Shown: positions 31,934 through 46,488 of the stretch, one piece after another
How positions within the stretch are numbered: the stretch's first letter is position 1
How the letters are laid out: the number at the start of each line of letters is the position of its first letter
Source: Promethearchaeota archaeon
Lineage (GTDB): Archaea; Asgardarchaeota; Lokiarchaeia; Sigyniarchaeales; SOKP01
Reading direction: 5' to 3'
Length of the DNA: 64,000 nucleotides
Assembly: GCA_030603385.1 (NCBI GenBank)
Contig: JAUVXW010000001.1
Location: 32,001 to 96,000, forward strand
Notes under the pieces: model-generated
Database searches by the model: none
What the model was told of the DNA's origin: nothing
Seen by the model: the letters and a program-made list of their open reading frames with translations, nothing else
Program-made: the position numbers and the translations under genes

Positions 31934-32761
31934 ATGAGCGAAAAAAAGGTAGTCTTAATAGAAGAAAATGAAGACCAAACAATAACCACAATCAAGTTGA
32001 ATCGTTTAGAGAAAAAAAATGCTATAAATTGGGATGTATTAAACGGTTTAGAAAAAGCGATTGAAGAAGCAGAACAATCAAAAACTAGGGTTATTATTTT
32101 AACCGGCGCGACTGATTTTTTTAGTTCTGGAATTGACTTAAATCTTCTAGCTGGTCAAGATCCTACTTCAACAGAAAGGGGACCAGACTTGTCCACCCCA
32201 TCCCATTTTAGATACTACTTAAATACTAAATTTCACCCAATAGTGATAAAAATTGGAAAAGTTGAAAAGCCATTTATAGCTAGAATTGAAGGATTTTGCT
32301 TTGGATTAGGTTTTGAACTAGCCCTGGCATGTGATTTCCGATTTTCTCTAGAAAATGCTAAATTTAGTATGCCTGAGGTAAAGGTAGGAATCATTCCTGA
32401 CGTGTCTGGAACAACAAGACTCACACGATTGTGTGGAATATCGCACGCAAAGGATATTGCATTAACTGGAAGGATTTTTGATGGCATAGAAGCATATAGA
32501 ATGGGTGCAGTAAACGGAATAGCAAAAAATAGAGAAGAATTAGACGTCTTGGTGAAAAAATACTCGGATGAACTAATAGATAGCGCCCCACTTGCAGTAG
32601 GATTAGGTAAAAAATTAATCGATAATATTTATGGTCAGAATCTTGAATTTGGTTTAGAACTGGAAGGCCTTGTAAATTCTCAATTATTACAATCAAGCGA
32701 TTTTAGAAAAGGAGCTATGGCTCGATTACAAAAACAAAAGCCAAAATGGAAAGGTAAATAA
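31934..32761 (+). CDS. Enoyl-CoA hydratase/isomerase family protein
   Basis: LNRLEKKNA, FSSGIDL, GLGFELALACD and PEVKVGIIPD motifs. Confidence 0.93.
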   Translation: MSEKKVVLIEENEDQTITTIKLNRLEKKNAINWDVLNGLEKAIEEAEQSKTRVIILTGATDFFSSGIDLNLLAGQDPTSTERGPDLSTPSHFRYYLNTKFHPIVIKIGKVEKPFIARIEGFCFGLGFELALACDFRFSLENAKFSMPEVKVGIIPDVSGTTRLTRLCGISHAKDIALTGRIFDGIEAYRMGAVNGIAKNREELDVLVKKYSDELIDSAPLAVGLGKKLIDNIYGQNLEFGLELEGLVNSQLLQSSDFRKGAMARLQKQKPKWKGK

Positions 32762-39316: not shown

Positions 39317-42307
39317 TTGCCGAGTCCAAGAAAAGGAAGAAATAAAAAAGCTGAAGATCAAATTCAAAAATCATTATTTTCCTTTGTTGATGAAAAAGAA
39401 AAGGAGAAGAAAGAACCAGCAGAAGAGTCTAAGAAAGAGCAAATTAAAGCCTTAGAAAAAGAAAAACCAATTGAAAAAGCTACGACTACTGAAGAAGAGA
39501 AAATTGTAGAAACTCAATCAAAAGAAAAACCTGAAATAAAAAAAATCTCTCAAATCTCCTTCTTTAAAGAAAAAGATGAGCCCTTTGGATTAATGGAAAG
39601 TAATATAAAGTTAGAAAAAGTCCTCAGAGAAGGAGTAACCTCAAAATATATCCGTTATTTGATTGCAAAGGGAGAAATAGTCGAGAATTTAGATAGAGGA
39701 TTATTACTGGATGTTGATTATGATGGTGGACAAAACAAAGCATTTTGTAAATTCTATGATTTAGACACTGAGGATATAAAGATTTGGATTGATACAACTG
39801 AGCATGAACCTTATTGTTTAAGTAAAGAGCCAATTTCCGAATTAGAAAAATTATATTATTCAGAAAAAATTGGACAAACGAAGCAGAAAAAGAAATTAAC
39901 CGATTATGTGGGATTCAAGCGATTCGAGGAAATAAAACGATTTGATTTATTAAAAGATAAAGAAATTAAAATGACAAAGCTATACGGTGATACTCCTATA
40001 GATATAGGGGGCTCCGGAACGAATCTTCGTAATATCTTAAATGAAAATAAAAAGAAGGCGTGGGAAGCAGATATACGGTATCATTTAAACTATATCTTTG
40101 ATAGACAACTAATCCCTGGGTTAATTTATAGCATAAAAAATGGGAAACTTGAAATATTAGATTTTGAGAAAATTGATGATAATTCTAAAAGAATGGCTGA
40201 CGAGCTTCGAATTCTATTTAAAGACGAAGCTCCAGAAATTCAAGAATTCTCTGAGAAATTTTTAAATATCTTTATTACGCCTATCCCTGATGTCAAGCGT
40301 GTGGCTATGGATATAGAGATTAAAATAGGTGAAAAAGATTATAGAATTCCTGATCCACGTTCAGCTAAACAAGAAGTTATCAGTGTATCGTTTGTAGCTA
40401 CTGATGGATTAAAAGTAGTGTATATGCTTGAACGAGAAGATTATAGTTTTGAAAAACTTCATGAAGAATTTCCCTCAGATGCAAGAATTGTTCTCTTTAA
40501 ATCTGAAAAGGAATTAATTACAGAAACGTTTCGGCTCCTATGGAAATATCCTGTTGTTATAACTTTTAATGGCGACAATTTTGATTTAAACTATCTATTC
40601 CATCGAGCGAATGAAAAATTGAAGATTAATAGAGATTTAAATCCTATTCATGTAAAGCGAGGTTTTGGAATCTTATCAAAAGCAGAGTGCGATTTAAGAA
40701 GCGGAATTCACATTGACGTATTTAATATATTCTTTAATAGAAGTATTTCAGGATATGCATTTGGAGGTGTTTATGAAAGTGCTTCTCTCAATGCCATTAG
40801 TGCTGCCTTATTGGGAGAAGAAAAGTATCAACATGAGGAACTAATTCATGAAATGGAATTTGATATTCTTTCATGGTATAATCTTAAAGATTCCATATTG
40901 ACACTAGATCTTACGAAGTTTAACAATTCTCTCGTTTGGAACCTGATAATTCTATTATGTCGAATAACAAAAATGCCAATCCATGATATGGTGCGAAGGC
41001 AGATTTCAACCTGGATACAAAATATTTTTTATTTTGAACACCGTAGAAAAGGTTATCTAATTCCTCAACGGTCAGAAATAAGAGAATTAAAAGAAGGGGG
41101 AAAATTATCATCTAAGACTAATGATGAAAAATTCATGGGAGCCTACGTTATTCCTCCTGTTCCTGGAATTCATTTTGATGTTGTTGTCATGGATTTCGCC
41201 TCACTTTATCCCTCTATAATTAAGGAATATAATCTTTCTTACGAAACAGTTTTATGTCGTCATAAAGATGATGAGGATAATCTAGTCAAGGGGACTCCTT
41301 ATCATATATGCACGCATAAAATGGGAATATTTGCTTATGTAGTCGGCTTTTTCCGTGATATTAGGGTAAAGTATTTTAAACCAAAATCAGGCGATAAAAG
41401 CTTATCAGAAAAACAACGTAGTTATTACCAAACAATCCAACAAGCGCTTAAGGTTTTTATTAATGCTTCCTACGGAGTCTTTGGCTCACAAAACTTCCCT
41501 TTGCTTTGTTTACCCGTAGCAGAAAGTATTACAGGAATCGGACAGTATTCTATTAAGCAAACAATCAAAAAAGCTAAAGAATTAGGTGTAGAGGTTTTAT
41601 ATGGGGACACAGATTCAATTTTTCTTAAAAACCCTACAAAAGATCAAATGAAAGAAATATCCGATTGGAGTAAGAAAGAATTAGATTTAGATTTAGAAGA
41701 AGAAAAAACATATCAATTCTTAGCCCTTTCTGAAAGAAAAAAGAACTATCTTGGTATATATAAAGACACTAAATATGTTGACAAAAAGGGTTTAGTTGCT
41801 AAGAAGAAAAACACTCCCGAATTTATCAGAACTGTATTTAACGAAGTAATTGAAATCTTAAAAAATATCAATAATAATGAGGATTTTTTGAAAGCACGAA
41901 AATCTATTATTGATATTATTAAAATAAACAGAAAAAAAATAGGTAAAGAGGGTGAATTCAACTTAGAAGACTATTCGATTAATATAAGTATGCAAAAATC
42001 ACTTAAATCTTATGAGAAAACGATCCCCCAACATGTGAGAGCTGCGTTAGAATTAAAAGCCAGAACAGGAAGAGAACTCCAAAAAGGAGACAATGTTAAA
42101 TTTATCAAAAGTAACGATAAAATTGGAGCTAAAGCGTTTGAATTGGCTAAATTTGGAGATCTAGATGTTAAAAAGTATAAAGAACTATTGAGATCAGCAT
42201 TAGAGCAGTTATTAGATGCATTAGGAATTGAATATGAAGAAATTATTTTAAAAGGATATAAAAAGAAGAAAGAAGCCGAACCAAAACATCAATCGACACT
42301 TTTTTAA
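39317..42307 (+). CDS. polB1: Replicative family B DNA polymerase PolB1 (intact, intein-free)
   Basis: Dpo1-like N-domain LLDVDYDG..KAFCKFYD..HEPY. Exonuclease motifs DIE, FNGDNFD and YNLKD. Polymerase motifs DFASLYPS, KVFINASYG and YGDTDS, then PQHVRAA. N-terminal PIP-like QKSLFSF. Confidence 0.95.
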   Translation: MPSPRKGRNKKAEDQIQKSLFSFVDEKEKEKKEPAEESKKEQIKALEKEKPIEKATTTEEEKIVETQSKEKPEIKKISQISFFKEKDEPFGLMESNIKLEKVLREGVTSKYIRYLIAKGEIVENLDRGLLLDVDYDGGQNKAFCKFYDLDTEDIKIWIDTTEHEPYCLSKEPISELEKLYYSEKIGQTKQKKKLTDYVGFKRFEEIKRFDLLKDKEIKMTKLYGDTPIDIGGSGTNLRNILNENKKKAWEADIRYHLNYIFDRQLIPGLIYSIKNGKLEILDFEKIDDNSKRMADELRILFKDEAPEIQEFSEKFLNIFITPIPDVKRVAMDIEIKIGEKDYRIPDPRSAKQEVISVSFVATDGLKVVYMLEREDYSFEKLHEEFPSDARIVLFKSEKELITETFRLLWKYPVVITFNGDNFDLNYLFHRANEKLKINRDLNPIHVKRGFGILSKAECDLRSGIHIDVFNIFFNRSISGYAFGGVYESASLNAISAALLGEEKYQHEELIHEMEFDILSWYNLKDSILTLDLTKFNNSLVWNLIILLCRITKMPIHDMVRRQISTWIQNIFYFEHRRKGYLIPQRSEIRELKEGGKLSSKTNDEKFMGAYVIPPVPGIHFDVVVMDFASLYPSIIKEYNLSYETVLCRHKDDEDNLVKGTPYHICTHKMGIFAYVVGFFRDIRVKYFKPKSGDKSLSEKQRSYYQTIQQALKVFINASYGVFGSQNFPLLCLPVAESITGIGQYSIKQTIKKAKELGVEVLYGDTDSIFLKNPTKDQMKEISDWSKKELDLDLEEEKTYQFLALSERKKNYLGIYKDTKYVDKKGLVAKKKNTPEFIRTVFNEVIEILKNINNNEDFLKARKSIIDIIKINRKKIGKEGEFNLEDYSINISMQKSLKSYEKTIPQHVRAALELKARTGRELQKGDNVKFIKSNDKIGAKAFELAKFGDLDVKKYKELLRSALEQLLDALGIEYEEIILKGYKKKKEAEPKHQSTLF

Positions 42308-42339
42308 TTTTTCAATATTTTGAAAGGAGTGTATCGATT

Positions 42340-44397
42340 TCAAGATTCAATGTCATGAACTAAGATTCCGTTTGTTGAGATAAACCAGCCATTGTCAGTC
42401 TTTATATTAAAGATATCATGATTTTTCTTAATTTTTTTTATAGATTTGATTTTTACGGGAGTTGTACTATTGAATTTGAGAAGCCCCATGAATTTTCTTT
42501 TATAATGTTTTCCTTTGGTCTCTACTATGCGATGACAATTATCTGAAGGAGAAGAATTGTGAATAGAAACAAATTGCCCAATTGCTCCTAACATACTCAC
42601 TAAATCATTTTTTAATTGTTTACTTACTGTTGTAAATCTTCTTAATCCATTTGGTAATTGATCACCATCACCCTTATAGTATGCATCTAAAAAAGCGTTT
42701 ATCCTGTCATTTGTTAATAATTCAAATGGAATTCTCTTATTTTGAGCTAACTTTGAGCATAAATTTGTGGTTAATTCCATCAACATATTTGAATTTATTC
42801 TAATCATGTTATTTCCGTTATTTGTCACAGGAAAATTTAATTGTTCAAGAAGATTAATGATTTCTCTCCAGTTTTCGTAATTTTTACTTTTTGATTGGCT
42901 AATCTGAATCCTATTTTTATCTGTACTACCTTCTGAAGCATACCAACCCAAATATCTGAAGAAATCATTAGTTAATGGAACAATTGAGGAATACCAATAC
43001 CCAACTCTTTCATGAATTTTTATTAAAATTTCAATATTTTTTCTCCTCGCTTCATTTTCAAGTAATTGTCTTTCCGAATTTGATAAATTCGACCAGATTG
43101 TTCTATATATTTTAGCTACCTTAGAATATTGAAATTTAGAATTAATTAGTTGTATTAACGGATCATTGGTCTGTTGATTTGTCCTATATGAGAATTTTAG
43201 ATATTCATTCCTCTTTATTCCAACCCATCGATTCTCCCAATTTAGGAAGCTAGGAATAAAAATAAGATCTAGAACATTTGAAGAGAGTAGAATCTTATGG
43301 AGCACCAGCAAATTATCTTCTTTATTTAGATCTCGAGCCTTGGTATATTTAACATACCAATCATTTAATGTGGAATCATAGGATTTATTGCGAATTCGAA
43401 TCACCATTTTAGGAATTATTTGATCTGGAGTGCAAGTAATGTGTCTTCCATCAGATAAACGAATATTTAGTAAGTTTGAAGATTTACTTCTTGTAAAATC
43501 CCTAATATGTATAAATTTTGGAGCCCCAAATAACTTACCTTTTTTGTTGATTGATAATATTTTTAAATTTTGCCATGAATTCTCTAGAAATCCAATTTGA
43601 ACCTTGTTAACTATCCCCTTTGTATCCTTTACCACTATTTCCTCATCATAAGGAAGCCCACTTTTGATTTTCTTGTTTCTAGATTGATAACCTGAATCAA
43701 TTTCCTCAAATGGATAATTCTTTAAGTTTTTAATTATTGTAGCTTCAAATTTTGGAAGACCTTTCATTTCCCACATCTCCGAAACTAATTTAAACACGGT
43801 TTTTGTCAGCCATAATAAAAAAATTTTAACATGTGCATGATATTTTTGATCTAATTGAATTTTATTTTGCAATAATTTAAGCCAATCTTCAAATTCCTCA
43901 ATACTAAGTCTAAATAAATTTCCTAATAATTTATTGCTTATACGTTTATTAATTATTGGTTTAAGGTAATTTGCTAAATCATAGAGTAAGGATTTTGTTA
44001 GGTTCACTCGACATATGAAAGTATTTGCATTTTGTTCCCATGTTCTTATAAAAAGGTAGATTAAGCGAGAGATAACAATAATTAAATTTTCTTTAAAAAT
44101 TTGAGGGAAATCATTGTCTCCCAAAATCAAAGCTACAGAGATTTTTTGAGATTTCCTTATCTTAATGACTCTTCTAATTAAGGATTTCGTCTTTGGACCT
44201 AAATTTTCTTTTGTGTTTATAGTAATATCATTATTATGCCAATCTCTACAATTAATGCTTGAATAATTAATTTCTAATCCACAAAATTCACATAAAGCAA
44301 ATTCTTTATTTTCTGTGATTCTTTGAATGATTTCATATGGTATTTCCCAACCACAATATTTACAGAAATTTGTAGATTTTTTTCCTTTTTCGATCAT
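42340..44397 (-). CDS. Zinc finger + helical domain + non-splicing Hint/LAGLIDADG (intein-derived) endonuclease
   Basis: N-terminal CKYC-x20-CEFC. Intein block A GLPYDEEIVV (aa 247), block B LSDGRHITCTPDQ, LAGLIDADG motifs YLGWYASEGS and FLDAYYKGDG, blocks F/G IFNIKTDNGWFISTNGILVHD, then IES and stop. Confidence 0.85.
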   Translation of the reverse strand: MIEKGKKSTNFCKYCGWEIPYEIIQRITENKEFALCEFCGLEINYSSINCRDWHNNDITINTKENLGPKTKSLIRRVIKIRKSQKISVALILGDNDFPQIFKENLIIVISRLIYLFIRTWEQNANTFICRVNLTKSLLYDLANYLKPIINKRISNKLLGNLFRLSIEEFEDWLKLLQNKIQLDQKYHAHVKIFLLWLTKTVFKLVSEMWEMKGLPKFEATIIKNLKNYPFEEIDSGYQSRNKKIKSGLPYDEEIVVKDTKGIVNKVQIGFLENSWQNLKILSINKKGKLFGAPKFIHIRDFTRSKSSNLLNIRLSDGRHITCTPDQIIPKMVIRIRNKSYDSTLNDWYVKYTKARDLNKEDNLLVLHKILLSSNVLDLIFIPSFLNWENRWVGIKRNEYLKFSYRTNQQTNDPLIQLINSKFQYSKVAKIYRTIWSNLSNSERQLLENEARRKNIEILIKIHERVGYWYSSIVPLTNDFFRYLGWYASEGSTDKNRIQISQSKSKNYENWREIINLLEQLNFPVTNNGNNMIRINSNMLMELTTNLCSKLAQNKRIPFELLTNDRINAFLDAYYKGDGDQLPNGLRRFTTVSKQLKNDLVSMLGAIGQFVSIHNSSPSDNCHRIVETKGKHYKRKFMGLLKFNSTTPVKIKSIKKIKKNHDIFNIKTDNGWFISTNGILVHDIES

Positions 44398-44437
44398 TTA
44401 ATTTCATTATTTACATTTATATTTAAAAAAAAATAAT

Positions 44438-44462
44438 TAGTCTTTATTATCTCTAAAGACTA
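44438..44462. promoter_or_regulatory. Inverted repeat next to the endonuclease promoter (possible operator)
   Basis: TAGTCTTTA-N7-TAAAGACTA lies just upstream of a minus-strand TATA box (TTTAAATATAAA, 44416-44427). Confidence 0.4.
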
Positions 44463-44628
44463 TTAGAATTTTCTTACACCTTCGGTTATATTATGTATAT
44501 TCTCTATAGGTTTATTATTATTTTATATAAATCTAAGAAAATATTTTTTATAAAGAAGAAGAGAGAATAGAAAAACGATAAAACTGAATATATTTTTCTA
44601 CGGAATAATTATATTGAATTTAAAATAA

Positions 44629-44914
44629 GCAAAAAAACTTGGAAAATTATACCAAAGTTGTTCCTCAGCATGTTAGAGCAGCTAAAGAATTAATGAAGGT
44701 CACAGGAAAAACATATCAAAAAGGTGAAACAATTAGTTTCATCAAAAGTAAAGGGGCACTCGGAGCTAAAGCAATTGAACTTGCTAAACTCCAAGACATT
44801 GATACTAACAAATATAAAGAACTTTTAAAATCTGCTTTAGAACAGGTCTTAGATGCTCTTGGTATTACTTTTGAAGAAATTAGGGGAATTAAAAAGATGG
44901 ACGCCTTTTTCTAA
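44629..44914 (+). pseudogene. Orphan (displaced) 3' end of polB1
   Basis: QKNLENYTKVVPQHVRAA...LGITFEEIRGIKKMDAFF is 53/84 aa identical (hand count) to the C-terminus of the upstream PolB1. An in-frame stop lies at 44621-44623 just before it. Confidence 0.88.
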
Positions 44915-45139
44915 ATTATTTGGCAATACAAAAAAAAGAATATAATTATATGTAATTATATTATTTTGAAATGGCCATGATTCATGGACCTGATAACATA
45001 GGTTATTACACAATTTTTTTTTACCAACATTAGAAATTTAGTTGAGTTATAATATTTTTATACTAAAAATGTTTACTTTCTTTTTAAAAGTAAATAGTTT
45101 AATTTAAATAATTTAAATTTTAATAGTTAATTGGATTAG

Positions 45140-45490
45140 ATGAATTTTAATCAGGATGAGATTATTAAAGAAGTTTTTGAAAAAAAGAATCAAATAAATT
45201 CTAATACATTTACCATAACACGTTTCATTTTACTCACTTTGCTTTCATATTTCATTGATGGTCTTCAATTTCGTGAGTTAAAAGCATCATTAAAAATCTC
45301 AGATGGGAATATAGCATCAAATCTTCTTTATTTAACAAAGATGGGATATATTAATAAAAATGCATTAGAATTTGATAATAAAAAATTACATTATTATACC
45401 ATTACGGAGAATGGAAAAGAAGAATTAAAAAAAATATTAAATTGGATGGAATTAATAAAAAAACTTTTGGGGGAGACTAATGATGAGTGA
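45140..45490 (+). CDS. Winged-HTH transcriptional regulator (MarR/ArsR-like)
   Basis: FRELKASLKISDGNIASNLLYL..GYI and YTITENG motifs. Confidence 0.85.
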   Translation: MNFNQDEIIKEVFEKKNQINSNTFTITRFILLTLLSYFIDGLQFRELKASLKISDGNIASNLLYLTKMGYINKNALEFDNKKLHYYTITENGKEELKKILNWMELIKKLLGETNDE

Positions 45491-46028
45491 AGATTTTAAA
45501 AAAGTTATTTCAGTTCTAAAATATTGGGATATGTATTTGGAACGGCCTAATAGAAATTATGGTTCTCGGTTTAAAATTCAAAAATTAACTTATTTATGTA
45601 AATCAATGGGATTTCCTCTCAAATATCAATTTACCTTATATATTAGTGGACCATATAGTACAGGATTAACCCGAGACTATTTTAATGCACCTCAATTAAT
45701 AGAAACGCTTGAAACAGATTATATTTTAAATGAAGTTGATTTAGAAATTTTAGATAAAATTAATGAATATGTGCTTATTCATCCGATCACTAATAATTAT
45801 GAATCAGAGTTTTTAGAAGCAGTATCAACAGTTGATTATTTAAAAAAAAGATATCCTGACATGTTAGATGATGAAATATTTGCAAAAACTAAAGAAGTTA
45901 AACAATATTTAAAAGATTCTATAGTTGTCATTGCTATTAATACTGTAAAAAAACTATTATTTAAACCAGAGTTCTTAACTGAAGAAGTTCAAGAGGAAAT
46001 TGACATCTGGGATAAAGCAGAAGATTAA
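45480..46028 (+). CDS. Panacea/SocA-like (DUF4065) antitoxin
   Basis: KIQKLTYL...YQFTLYISGPYS..L signature. It lies directly upstream of a toxin gene. Confidence 0.7.
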   Translation: MMSEDFKKVISVLKYWDMYLERPNRNYGSRFKIQKLTYLCKSMGFPLKYQFTLYISGPYSTGLTRDYFNAPQLIETLETDYILNEVDLEILDKINEYVLIHPITNNYESEFLEAVSTVDYLKKRYPDMLDDEIFAKTKEVKQYLKDSIVVIAINTVKKLLFKPEFLTEEVQEEIDIWDKAED

Positions 46029-46042
46029 CATCTGGGGATATT

Positions 46043-46411
46043 ATGGAACGATGGAGAAGGTTTCAAATAAAAAGGCGAGAAATATGGGATGTTAAATTAA
46101 GTTATCCTGGTGAAGGAGTTGGCCATGAAGAAAGATTTCCACATCCTTGTATTGTTATTAAATATAACAAATTTGTGGATATGGCAACTATTATACCTTT
46201 AACGAGTAATGTACAAGCATTAAAGGATTTTCCATATACCCATATAATAAATCCTAATACTTCAAATGGTTTAACTAATCAATCAATTGTAATGATATAT
46301 CAAGTTCGATCTTTAAGTAAACAACGTTTTTTACGAAAAAAAGGGAGAGTAATAAGAGACAATTATGATAAGATTCAAACTATTTTTAAAGATTATTTTC
46401 AACTATATTAA
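46043..46411 (+). CDS. mazF: PemK/MazF family endoribonuclease toxin
   Basis: REIWDVKL, GHEE..HPCIVI, IIPLTS, NGL..S and QVRSLSKQRF motifs. Confidence 0.88.
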   Translation: MERWRRFQIKRREIWDVKLSYPGEGVGHEERFPHPCIVIKYNKFVDMATIIPLTSNVQALKDFPYTHIINPNTSNGLTNQSIVMIYQVRSLSKQRFLRKKGRVIRDNYDKIQTIFKDYFQLY

Positions 46412-46488
46412 AAACAATTTTATTTTTTCTCCTGAATCAACAACAATTAGAAAAACAAAAAAAGAATAAAATTAGTTTTAATTTTTAT

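Follow-up and report, generated by a model that had tools for sequence, protein, structure and literature searches.

The replicative DNA polymerase gene polB of a Promethearchaeota archaeon probably belongs to a homing-type selfish cassette, made up of a free-standing LAGLIDADG endonuclease gene that was once an intein and of the adjoining 3' part of polB itself. The locus lies in a stretch of 64,000 nucleotides, hereafter the window, that covers positions 32,001 to 96,000 of contig JAUVXW010000001.1 (GenBank assembly GCA_030603385.1; genome G000 in the comparisons below). The source is a metagenome-assembled genome (MAG) with an estimated contamination of 7%, and every sequence compared here is a MAG or a metagenome contig; the relatives are not independent samples. 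Residue and codon numbers follow P0001, the polB product of 996 amino acids (aa). An earlier note, made from the sequence alone, had described polB, a convergent gene joining a zinc finger to Hint and LAGLIDADG domains, and a second, stop-free polB tail of about 94 codons. All three open reading frames (ORFs) were found where the note had placed them, and the locus is laid out as follows.

39317..42307, plus strand: polB (P0001, 996 aa, TTG start at 39317), with Pfam matches to DNA_pol_B (7.5e-47) and DNA_pol_B_exo1
41450..41476, plus strand: motif B, KVFINASYG, with the ancestral intein site at A717/S718 (41467/41468), placed by genuine inteins in relatives
41726..42307, plus strand: main foreign 3' tract of polB, from codon ~804 to the stop, placed by maximum chi-square and by the drop in DNA identity
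41993..42265, plus strand: in-use copy of the duplicated tail, Q893-K983, placed by BLASTP against the orphan
42340..44397, minus strand: endonuclease ORF P0002, 685 aa, convergent with polB, from Pfam and a motif scan
42340..43668, minus strand: Hint and LAGLIDADG part, P0002 residues 244-685 plus stop, 46% identical to the G050 intein
43669..44397, minus strand: Cys4 zinc ribbon and all-helical module, P0002 residues 1-243, homologous to the N-termini of other ORFs in the genus
44398..44629, no strand: AT-rich spacer of 232 bp (17% G+C) upstream of the endonuclease gene, defined by composition
44630..44914, plus strand: orphan native polB tail, 94 codons and a stop (44912-44914)

The endonuclease gene stands outside polB and directly downstream of it, without interrupting it, and 32 bp separate the polB stop from the stop of the convergent P0002 ORF. 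Beyond it, the frame of the orphan is open from 44624, behind the in-frame TAA (44621-44623) that the note had reported just upstream, and homology to the in-use tail begins at 44630. The abrupt shared start that the note had read as GCAAAAA was found, the letters common to both copies being CAAAAA. BLASTP aligned the in-use tail and the orphan with 56/91 identities (62%, E = 3e-37), far beyond chance and close to the 63% (53/84) that had been counted by hand. The identity of the two tails at the DNA level is about 71% over 181 nt, and they differ at most third codon positions, the codons for PQHVRAA being as quoted in the note for both copies.

The orphan, which is still an open frame without an upstream gene body, ends in GIKKMDAFF. 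In protein sequence it matches the in-use C-termini of 28 same-genus genomes, each with this ending, at 74-89% identity, and it is colinear with codons 901-994 of polB in the closest relative, G002, and with their 3' flank. To judge from these comparisons the orphan is the native end of polB, stranded downstream, as had been suspected. The empty alleles predicted on that basis exist. In G002, polB continues into sequence that corresponds to 44630-44961 of the window and, directly after that, to 46457 onward; the same uninterrupted arrangement is present in G105 and G018, where, as in G002, the gene runs into an end of the form QK..L.NY...KKMDAFF and the same downstream genes follow, and G030 also has an empty allele. 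Relative to the empty allele the window contains two inserts, the endonuclease cassette and a toxin-antitoxin-like cassette. The spacer at 44398-44629 has no counterpart in the G002 empty allele; it is the right-hand end of the inserted segment and presumably contains the promoter. The orphan of a second genome, G109, has 88% DNA identity to its sister G022 and clusters with it (99/83). In at least 40 empty loci the orphan was not found as a separate gene without the cassette, which speaks against the possibility, raised in the note, that it is a conserved gene in its own right.

The polB gene of the window is, by sequence comparison, a mosaic of a host-type 5' part and a foreign 3' part. Its tail ends in ...KGYKKKKEAEPKHQSTLF and not in the GIKKMDAFF typical of the genus, with a novel C-terminus, ...KKKKEAEPKHQSTLF, beyond K983. 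DNA identity to the G002 gene, 85-95% elsewhere, drops to 62-68% in the foreign tract, and in-use tails diverge most from native tails from about codon 830 on. The note had predicted discordance between the two ends of the gene, and this was borne out in trees of short segments (about 90-150 codons). In the 5' tree the cassette-bearing polBs are scattered among their hosts: G000 groups with its sister G002, G095 with G030/G033, G093 with G001/G100 and G109 with G022, G032 and G108 fall together, and G087 and G091 belong to another genus. Forcing them into one cassette clade on the 5' data cost 738 log-likelihood units (approximately unbiased test, p-AU 3e-45). In the 3' tree, G000, G095, G032, G093 and G108 form one clade with a support of 100 and G109 and G087 pair across genera with a support of 99, while the orphans group with host-type tails; the 3' data reject a tree that unites G000 and its host sisters (p-AU 1.3e-6). 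In another genus, a subgroup (G143, G145 and others) natively uses a similar extended tail; it may be where the tail came from, or it may have retained the tail alone after losing everything else. That the in-use tail had simply evolved in place, faster or under relaxed constraint, was rejected, as the tail groups with those of unrelated hosts and is under strong purifying selection, the ratio of nonsynonymous to synonymous substitution rates (dN/dS) among in-use tails being 0.05-0.15.

As a separate observation on these tails, the native ending IKKMDAFF (44840-44914) resembles a PCNA-interacting, PIP-box-like C-terminus, in place of which the in-use tail has KKKKEAEPKHQSTLF (42200-42307); related cassette tails end in QKTLF, EKFF, NDFF and KLDGFI.

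Where the foreign tract begins was estimated as the single best breakpoint by maximum chi-square, from sites at which the host sister and an element reference differ. Left breakpoints were placed at codons 713/715 in G095, about codon 735 in G108, about 745 in G093, about 797 in G087, codons 803/804 in G000 and about codon 822 in G032; in G109 the divergence from the host sister sets in at codon 717. In G000, element-like states make up 0.25 of the informative sites left of codons 803/804 and 0.80 of those right of them. Nucleotide differences from the host sister over 100 codons on each side of the intein insertion point rose from 8.7% on the left to 22.3% on the right in G095/G030 (p = 5e-6), from 7.3% to 26.7% in G109/G022 (p = 2e-10) and from 5.7% to 21.7% in G108/G032 (p = 1e-8). 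Two of three cassette-free control pairs were flat, and the third, G030/G033, showed a modest rise (6.7% to 12.0%, p = 0.035). In the cleanest sister pairs, then, the foreign tract as read from the alignments is one that starts at the ancestral intein site (codons 713-717). The tract replaced in G095 ends about 60 bp past the endonuclease ORF, after which colinearity with G030 resumes. The note had let the replacement start at 41992; a replacement it is, with its start further upstream, near codon 804 in the window and at motif B in the cleanest relatives.

The arrangement recurs. In a survey of 154 genomes of the order, two copies of the polB tail were found, on a single contig or on contigs joined together, in G000, G093, G108, G109, G087, G091 and G046 (contigs C119 and C122 of G046 were joined via an 8-residue overlap of one ORF). 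Free-standing Hint-LAGLIDADG genes were found in six (G000, G095, G109, G087, G091 and G046), and a search of 5.8 billion proteins returned only 11 relatives of similar length, adding four metagenome contig types from six samples in which endonuclease gene and polB again lie tail-to-tail. Every free-standing copy found in these proteins adjoins polB, and all six genomic copies and the four metagenome types are convergent with it at 3-115 bp from its stop. That homologues would sit beside a polB with an orphan 3' end, as the note had expected, holds for five of the six genomes (G000, G109, G087, G091 and G046) and for metagenome loci L103 and L104-106, with orphans in at least nine loci altogether; G095 has the endonuclease without an orphan. 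G032 has the foreign tail on a contig that ends at the polB stop. The relatives carry the labels Promethearchaeia and Promethearchaeota, which bears out the note in placing the element in an Asgard archaeon. Since the distribution is patchy (6/154 genomes) and the tails have crossed genera, a selfish element is a better description than a domesticated host gene.

Some loci carry further genes. G093 and G108 have alternative cargo between the foreign tail and the orphan (L064 3326-5459 and L066 3231-5364), namely two overlapping co-oriented ORFs of 374 and 357 aa that are 94-97% identical between the two genomes and have no Pfam family; the second shows a PD...EAK motif, by eye only, suggestive of a PD-(D/E)xK nuclease. 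The cargo protein recorded with the PD...EAK motif, seen by eye only, is P0005. Extra genes stand between endonuclease and orphan in G046 (a HerA/mad8-like ATPase of about 1130 aa, a weak match; L055 8094-9824 and L056 2-1735), in G109 (four ORFs, one with a weak DarG-like match; L065 3473-7394) and in G087 and G091 (a CxxCxxCC-domain protein; L067 3265-4068 in G087). Cargo genes gave weak matches only in Pfam and PADLOC (BrxF-like, DarG-like, HerA/mad8-like ATPase) and fell into hypothetical-protein clusters only in the Atlas; they may be hitch-hiking defence or accessory genes. The second insert of the window, about 1.5 kb long (44931-46483), directly follows the orphan by comparison with the G002 empty allele. 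It is a toxin-antitoxin-like cassette of three co-oriented ORFs, encoding a winged-helix HTH_34/PadR-like protein (45140-45490), a 182-aa protein without a family match (45480-46028) and a PemK/MazF-like toxin (46043-46411), and is bounded by imperfect 27-nt direct repeats (44931-44957 and 46457-46483, 85% identical).

The ancestry of P0002 can be traced within polB. An in-frame insert in the polB of G050, at KVFING/CLPYDEE...NGIVVHN/CYGVFG in polymerase motif B, shares 46% identity with residues 244-682. Since it lies in frame at KVFING/C...VHN/CYG, the G050 insert is a canonical motif-B intein; further motif-B inteins are present in G145, G153 and G157, and a mini-intein without an endonuclease domain in G046, the genuine context KVFING/C...HN/[SC]YG being found in G050, G145 and G046. 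The free-standing copies form one clade against the inteins (support 98/98). On these sequence relationships P0002 demonstrably descends from the polB motif-B intein, and an endonuclease derived in this way arose independently of yeast WHO/HO. The Hint domain of P0002 is, as far as its residues tell, that of a non-splicing ex-intein: Cys1 is replaced by Gly, the His of the block B TxxH by Gln (TPDQ), and the C-terminus reads VHDIES instead of VHN/C, with the terminal Asn changed to Asp and followed by three residues and the stop, and there are no exteins. P0002 thus departs from an intein in its opposite strand, its separate ORF and its replaced catalytic splicing residues.

Both LAGLIDADG motifs of P0002, LGWYASEGS (residues 483-491, 42925-42951) and LDAYYKGDGD (570-579, 42661-42690), retain their acidic residue (Glu and Asp), which is conserved in all free-standing copies and inteins. 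Pfam matched P0002 weakly to both Intein_splicing and LAGLIDADG_3, and the only solved relative by sequence is PI-PkoII (PDB 2CW7), a Thermococcus polB intein. A dN/dS of 0.24-0.34 among the endonucleases, together with that of the in-use tails, supports function. The N-terminal module has CxxC pairs at residues 12-15 and 36-39 and resembles, at 30-52% identity, the N-termini of further ORFs in at least ten genomes of the genus. Among polB-linked copies the zinc ribbon is confined to the window and one metagenome copy (L102), and the alignment of P0002 with the G095 protein stops at 43674. An AF2 model of the module (pLDDT 71) had no match in PDB at E <= 0.001.

Elsewhere in the genus the combination of zinc ribbon and helical module recurs in proteins of 540-1260 aa (L007-L016), partnered with plain LAGLIDADG domains without Hint or with other C-termini. 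Five loci with such zinc-ribbon and LAGLIDADG genes showed no duplicated gene ends in 9-14 kb of flank; one of these genes adjoins paralogues of the RFC small subunit.

The old homing site, empty in the window, differs from that of endonuclease-free relatives. The motif reads KVFINASYG, with A717 (GCT, 41465-41467) in the position where those relatives have Gly. Across the family-level set, the residue at position -1 of the insertion point is Gly in 42/54 polBs. It is Ala or Ser in the five endonuclease-linked intein-less genomes, whose sisters have Gly, and also in 4/4 metagenome types, amounting to 9/9 intein-less endonuclease-linked polBs against 7/48 others. Five phylogenetically independent differing pairs all point in the same direction (p = 0.06); Fisher's test, uncorrected, gave p = 3e-4. 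In G046 the site is occupied by the mini-intein, beside a free-standing endonuclease. Over the 36 nt around the site, 6-9 positions depart from the endonuclease-free consensus, compared with 5.3 on average (uncorrected Mann-Whitney p = 2e-5), with no excess in upstream control windows. We propose, from these patterns, that motif B is the target of the endonuclease and that the window copy is the resistant form. A replacement C-terminus resistant to cleavage had been suggested; the replacement stands, with the likely determinant of resistance being the change of Gly to Ala at A717 and not the duplicated C-terminus.

The probable mode of spread of such a homing cassette may be pictured as follows, where we infer cleavage of polB by P0002, the position of the cut and the first right-hand junction from sequence. 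The predicted endonuclease would cut polB alleles with an unoccupied, Gly-type motif B, the old homing site of the intein, and the break would be repaired from a cassette-bearing genome. The left end would invade at or upstream of motif B, and synthesis would then proceed through motif B in its resistant form, with Ala or Ser at -1, and on through the remainder of polB and the endonuclease gene. Capture of the right end in shared downstream DNA would leave no orphan, as in G095; capture in the native tail, or in the orphan of the donor, would strand the native tail as an orphan. The first right-hand join would have been illegitimate. Orphans start at codons 841, 868, 893, 924, 927 or 939 depending on the lineage, with common starts in G093 and G108 and in L104, L105 and L106. 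Because starts differ between lineages and are common within a lineage, the orphan was presumably inherited with the cassette as its right-hand homology arm.

Several observations weigh against this scheme. The orphans begin at codons 841-939, 124-222 codons past motif B and off the proposed cut site, unlike in WHO elements. The main foreign tract of G000 and G087 begins only near codon ~800; both show a small element-like patch at motif B (codons 710-729 in G000, where it is possibly separate), then a host-like stretch and then the main tract, a pattern compatible with a conversion tract that has gaps or with back-recombination at a later time. Ala or Ser at -1 also occurs in seven polBs with no detected endonuclease, and two of these (G108 and G032) have the foreign tail. 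The sign test has its floor at p = 0.06, there being only five independent pairs. Finally, two unrelated ORFs take the place of the endonuclease gene between foreign tail and orphan in G093 and G108, and the foreign tail can therefore travel or persist without it.

The position of the orphans could be understood if the specificity of the endonuclease had shifted, so that it cuts the region coding for the thumb domain (about codons 822-841). The element would then be strictly WHO-like, with orphans beginning at the cut, and the breakpoints at motif B would be crossovers that resolve in the most conserved stretch. All seven left breakpoints (codons 713-822) indeed lie upstream of all orphan starts (841-939), and the in-use and native tails differ most from about codon 830 on. 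A shifted cut, however, leaves unexplained the loss of Gly at the intein site in 9/9 linked polBs, the mini-intein at that site in G046, the abrupt rise in divergence that three pairs show within a few codons of the insertion point and the clean tract of G095, which runs from motif B without an orphan; we regard it as rather unlikely.

It is more doubtful still that the endonuclease is a passenger or a domesticated gene at a polB 3' end that acts as a recombination hot spot with variable cargo, the tail duplications being scars. Such a hot spot would accommodate the foreign tail and orphan with unrelated cargo and no endonuclease in G093 and G108, the other cargo between endonuclease and orphan in G109, G087, G091 and G046 with its weak defence-type matches, and the toxin-antitoxin-like cassette directly beside the orphan in the window. 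It does not sit well with a gene that adjoins polB in every free-standing copy found among 5.8 billion proteins and derives from the intein of polB itself, whose presence tracks the state of the old homing site at which the tracts start, and which is under purifying selection with its catalytic residues intact.

Integration at an attachment site, as by tRNA-targeting elements, classically leaves an insert flanked by a duplicated gene end, and the locus might be the remnant of a site-specifically integrating provirus or plasmid that uses the polB 3' end for attachment and carries a replacement end. We consider this highly improbable: no integrase or recombinase was found in or near any insert, junctions vary by lineage (codons 841, 868, 893, 924, 927 and 939), the two copies are only 62% identical instead of near-identical, and foreign sequence already begins upstream of the duplicated segment, an outcome that one crossover at an attachment site cannot give. 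In the window, Pfam gave no integrase or transposase match among the seven ORFs scanned at 38.8-46.4 kb, in line with the note, and no tRNA genes were found at 36-50 kb. A Campbell-type single crossover was rejected on the same counts: the missing recombinase, the variable junctions and the upstream start of the foreign tract. An assembly chimera, a doubt that the 7% estimated contamination of the MAG might feed, can practically be dismissed, because the same layout was assembled independently in at least ten other genomes or samples, and the contig is long with both flanks colinear with sister genomes.

A cassette that homes by replacing the end of polB has its closest likeness in the WHO elements, ranked in the literature on them as a third and much rarer category of homing element found in a few yeasts only, which target FBA1 in Torulaspora and Lachancea (Coughlan et al. 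2020, PMC7282813; Osborne, Monnin & Wolfe 2026, bioRxiv 10.64898/2026.08.13.744650). Shared with WHO are a free-standing, non-splicing, intein-like LAGLIDADG gene directly downstream of an essential gene (the opposite orientation is sometimes seen in WHO), a replacement 3' part of the host gene with old 3' ends stranded downstream, a host gene whose 5' half and 3' half differ in phylogeny, and a substituted catalytic-motif residue in the presumed target. Unlike in WHO, the host is an archaeon and the target polB instead of FBA1; the endonuclease descends from the intein of the host gene itself, with PI-PkoII and not VDE/HO as its nearest solved relative; no tandem clusters were seen, and extra cargo genes are sometimes present. 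The orphans (codons 841-939) also lie off the cut site deduced here from sequence (codon 717). The C-terminal zinc finger of WHO/HO is absent, and an unrelated N-terminal zinc ribbon occurs in two copies only. The analogy with WHO drawn in the note holds for the architecture and not for the zinc finger, which is N-terminal, unrelated and missing from most members. By sequence the archaeal cassette is outside the WHO/HO protein family, and its architecture matches the published WHO definition.

Resemblances to other systems are partial. As in the intronless homing of phage T4 (SegF, SegG, MobE; PMC2988022, PMC2790892, PMC6083498), an intergenic endonuclease gene would have its neighbour cut and the flanks co-converted, and G095/G030 represents this T4-like form, with a tract that runs from motif B through the endonuclease gene and no orphan. 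Enzymes of the SegF, SegG and MobE type, however, are GIY-YIG or HNH nucleases of phage genomes, leave no stranded gene end and do not come from an intein of their target. In cyanophage S-PM2, psbA is shielded from the neighbouring free-standing F-CphI by an intron that lacks an endonuclease (PMC6083498). G046 parallels such collaborative homing, having an endonuclease-less mini-intein at motif B and an adjoining free-standing endonuclease; unlike with F-CphI, the occupant in G046 is an intein and homologous to the enzyme, and the site in the window is empty but mutated. Archaeal polB inteins (PI-PkoII, PDB 2CW7; Haloferax volcanii, PMC3024317) share the homologous protein, the host gene and the insertion site. 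P0002 differs from them in that it is not in frame in polB, lies on the opposite strand as its own gene, and no longer has Cys1, the His of block B or the terminal Asn. No archaeal precedent was found among the papers searched.

Other polymerase genes of these genomes also stood out. Several genomes of the same genus have a polB of 1318-1378 aa (G018, L024; G008, L044; G013, L026; G098, L088) with inserts near codon 630, in the motif A region, and codon 765, in the motif C region, presumably inteins at other classical polB sites. On the contig of the window, just upstream of the window itself (G000:C4:31193-32554) and about 40 kb before polB, is a second, distant homologue of family B polymerases, with 27% identity over residues 544-985.

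The arrangement has so far been described only for yeast WHO elements. The locus described here and about ten relatives point to the same solution in archaea, in which the end of an essential gene is replaced instead of an element being spliced out. The fuller proposition is that this is an active WHO-type element in Asgard archaea that evolved independently from a polB intein, crosses species and genera by cutting motif B, forces Gly to Ala or Ser, swaps a PCNA-binding-like tail, and uses the orphan as a portable homology arm while cargo hitch-hikes; we see it as evenly balanced between true and false. If it is true, the transition from intein to free-standing endonuclease inferred for yeast HO would be captured here with intermediates never seen before: the full intein, the mini-intein with a neighbouring endonuclease, and the empty resistant site with a neighbouring endonuclease. 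As related genomes still carry the intein in polB, this step, which has been proposed for HO, is directly testable. The replicative polymerase in the closest prokaryotic relatives of eukaryotes is a mosaic, its motif B and C-terminal tail probably shaped by a selfish element, with a bearing on polB-based phylogenies and on gene flow among Asgard lineages.

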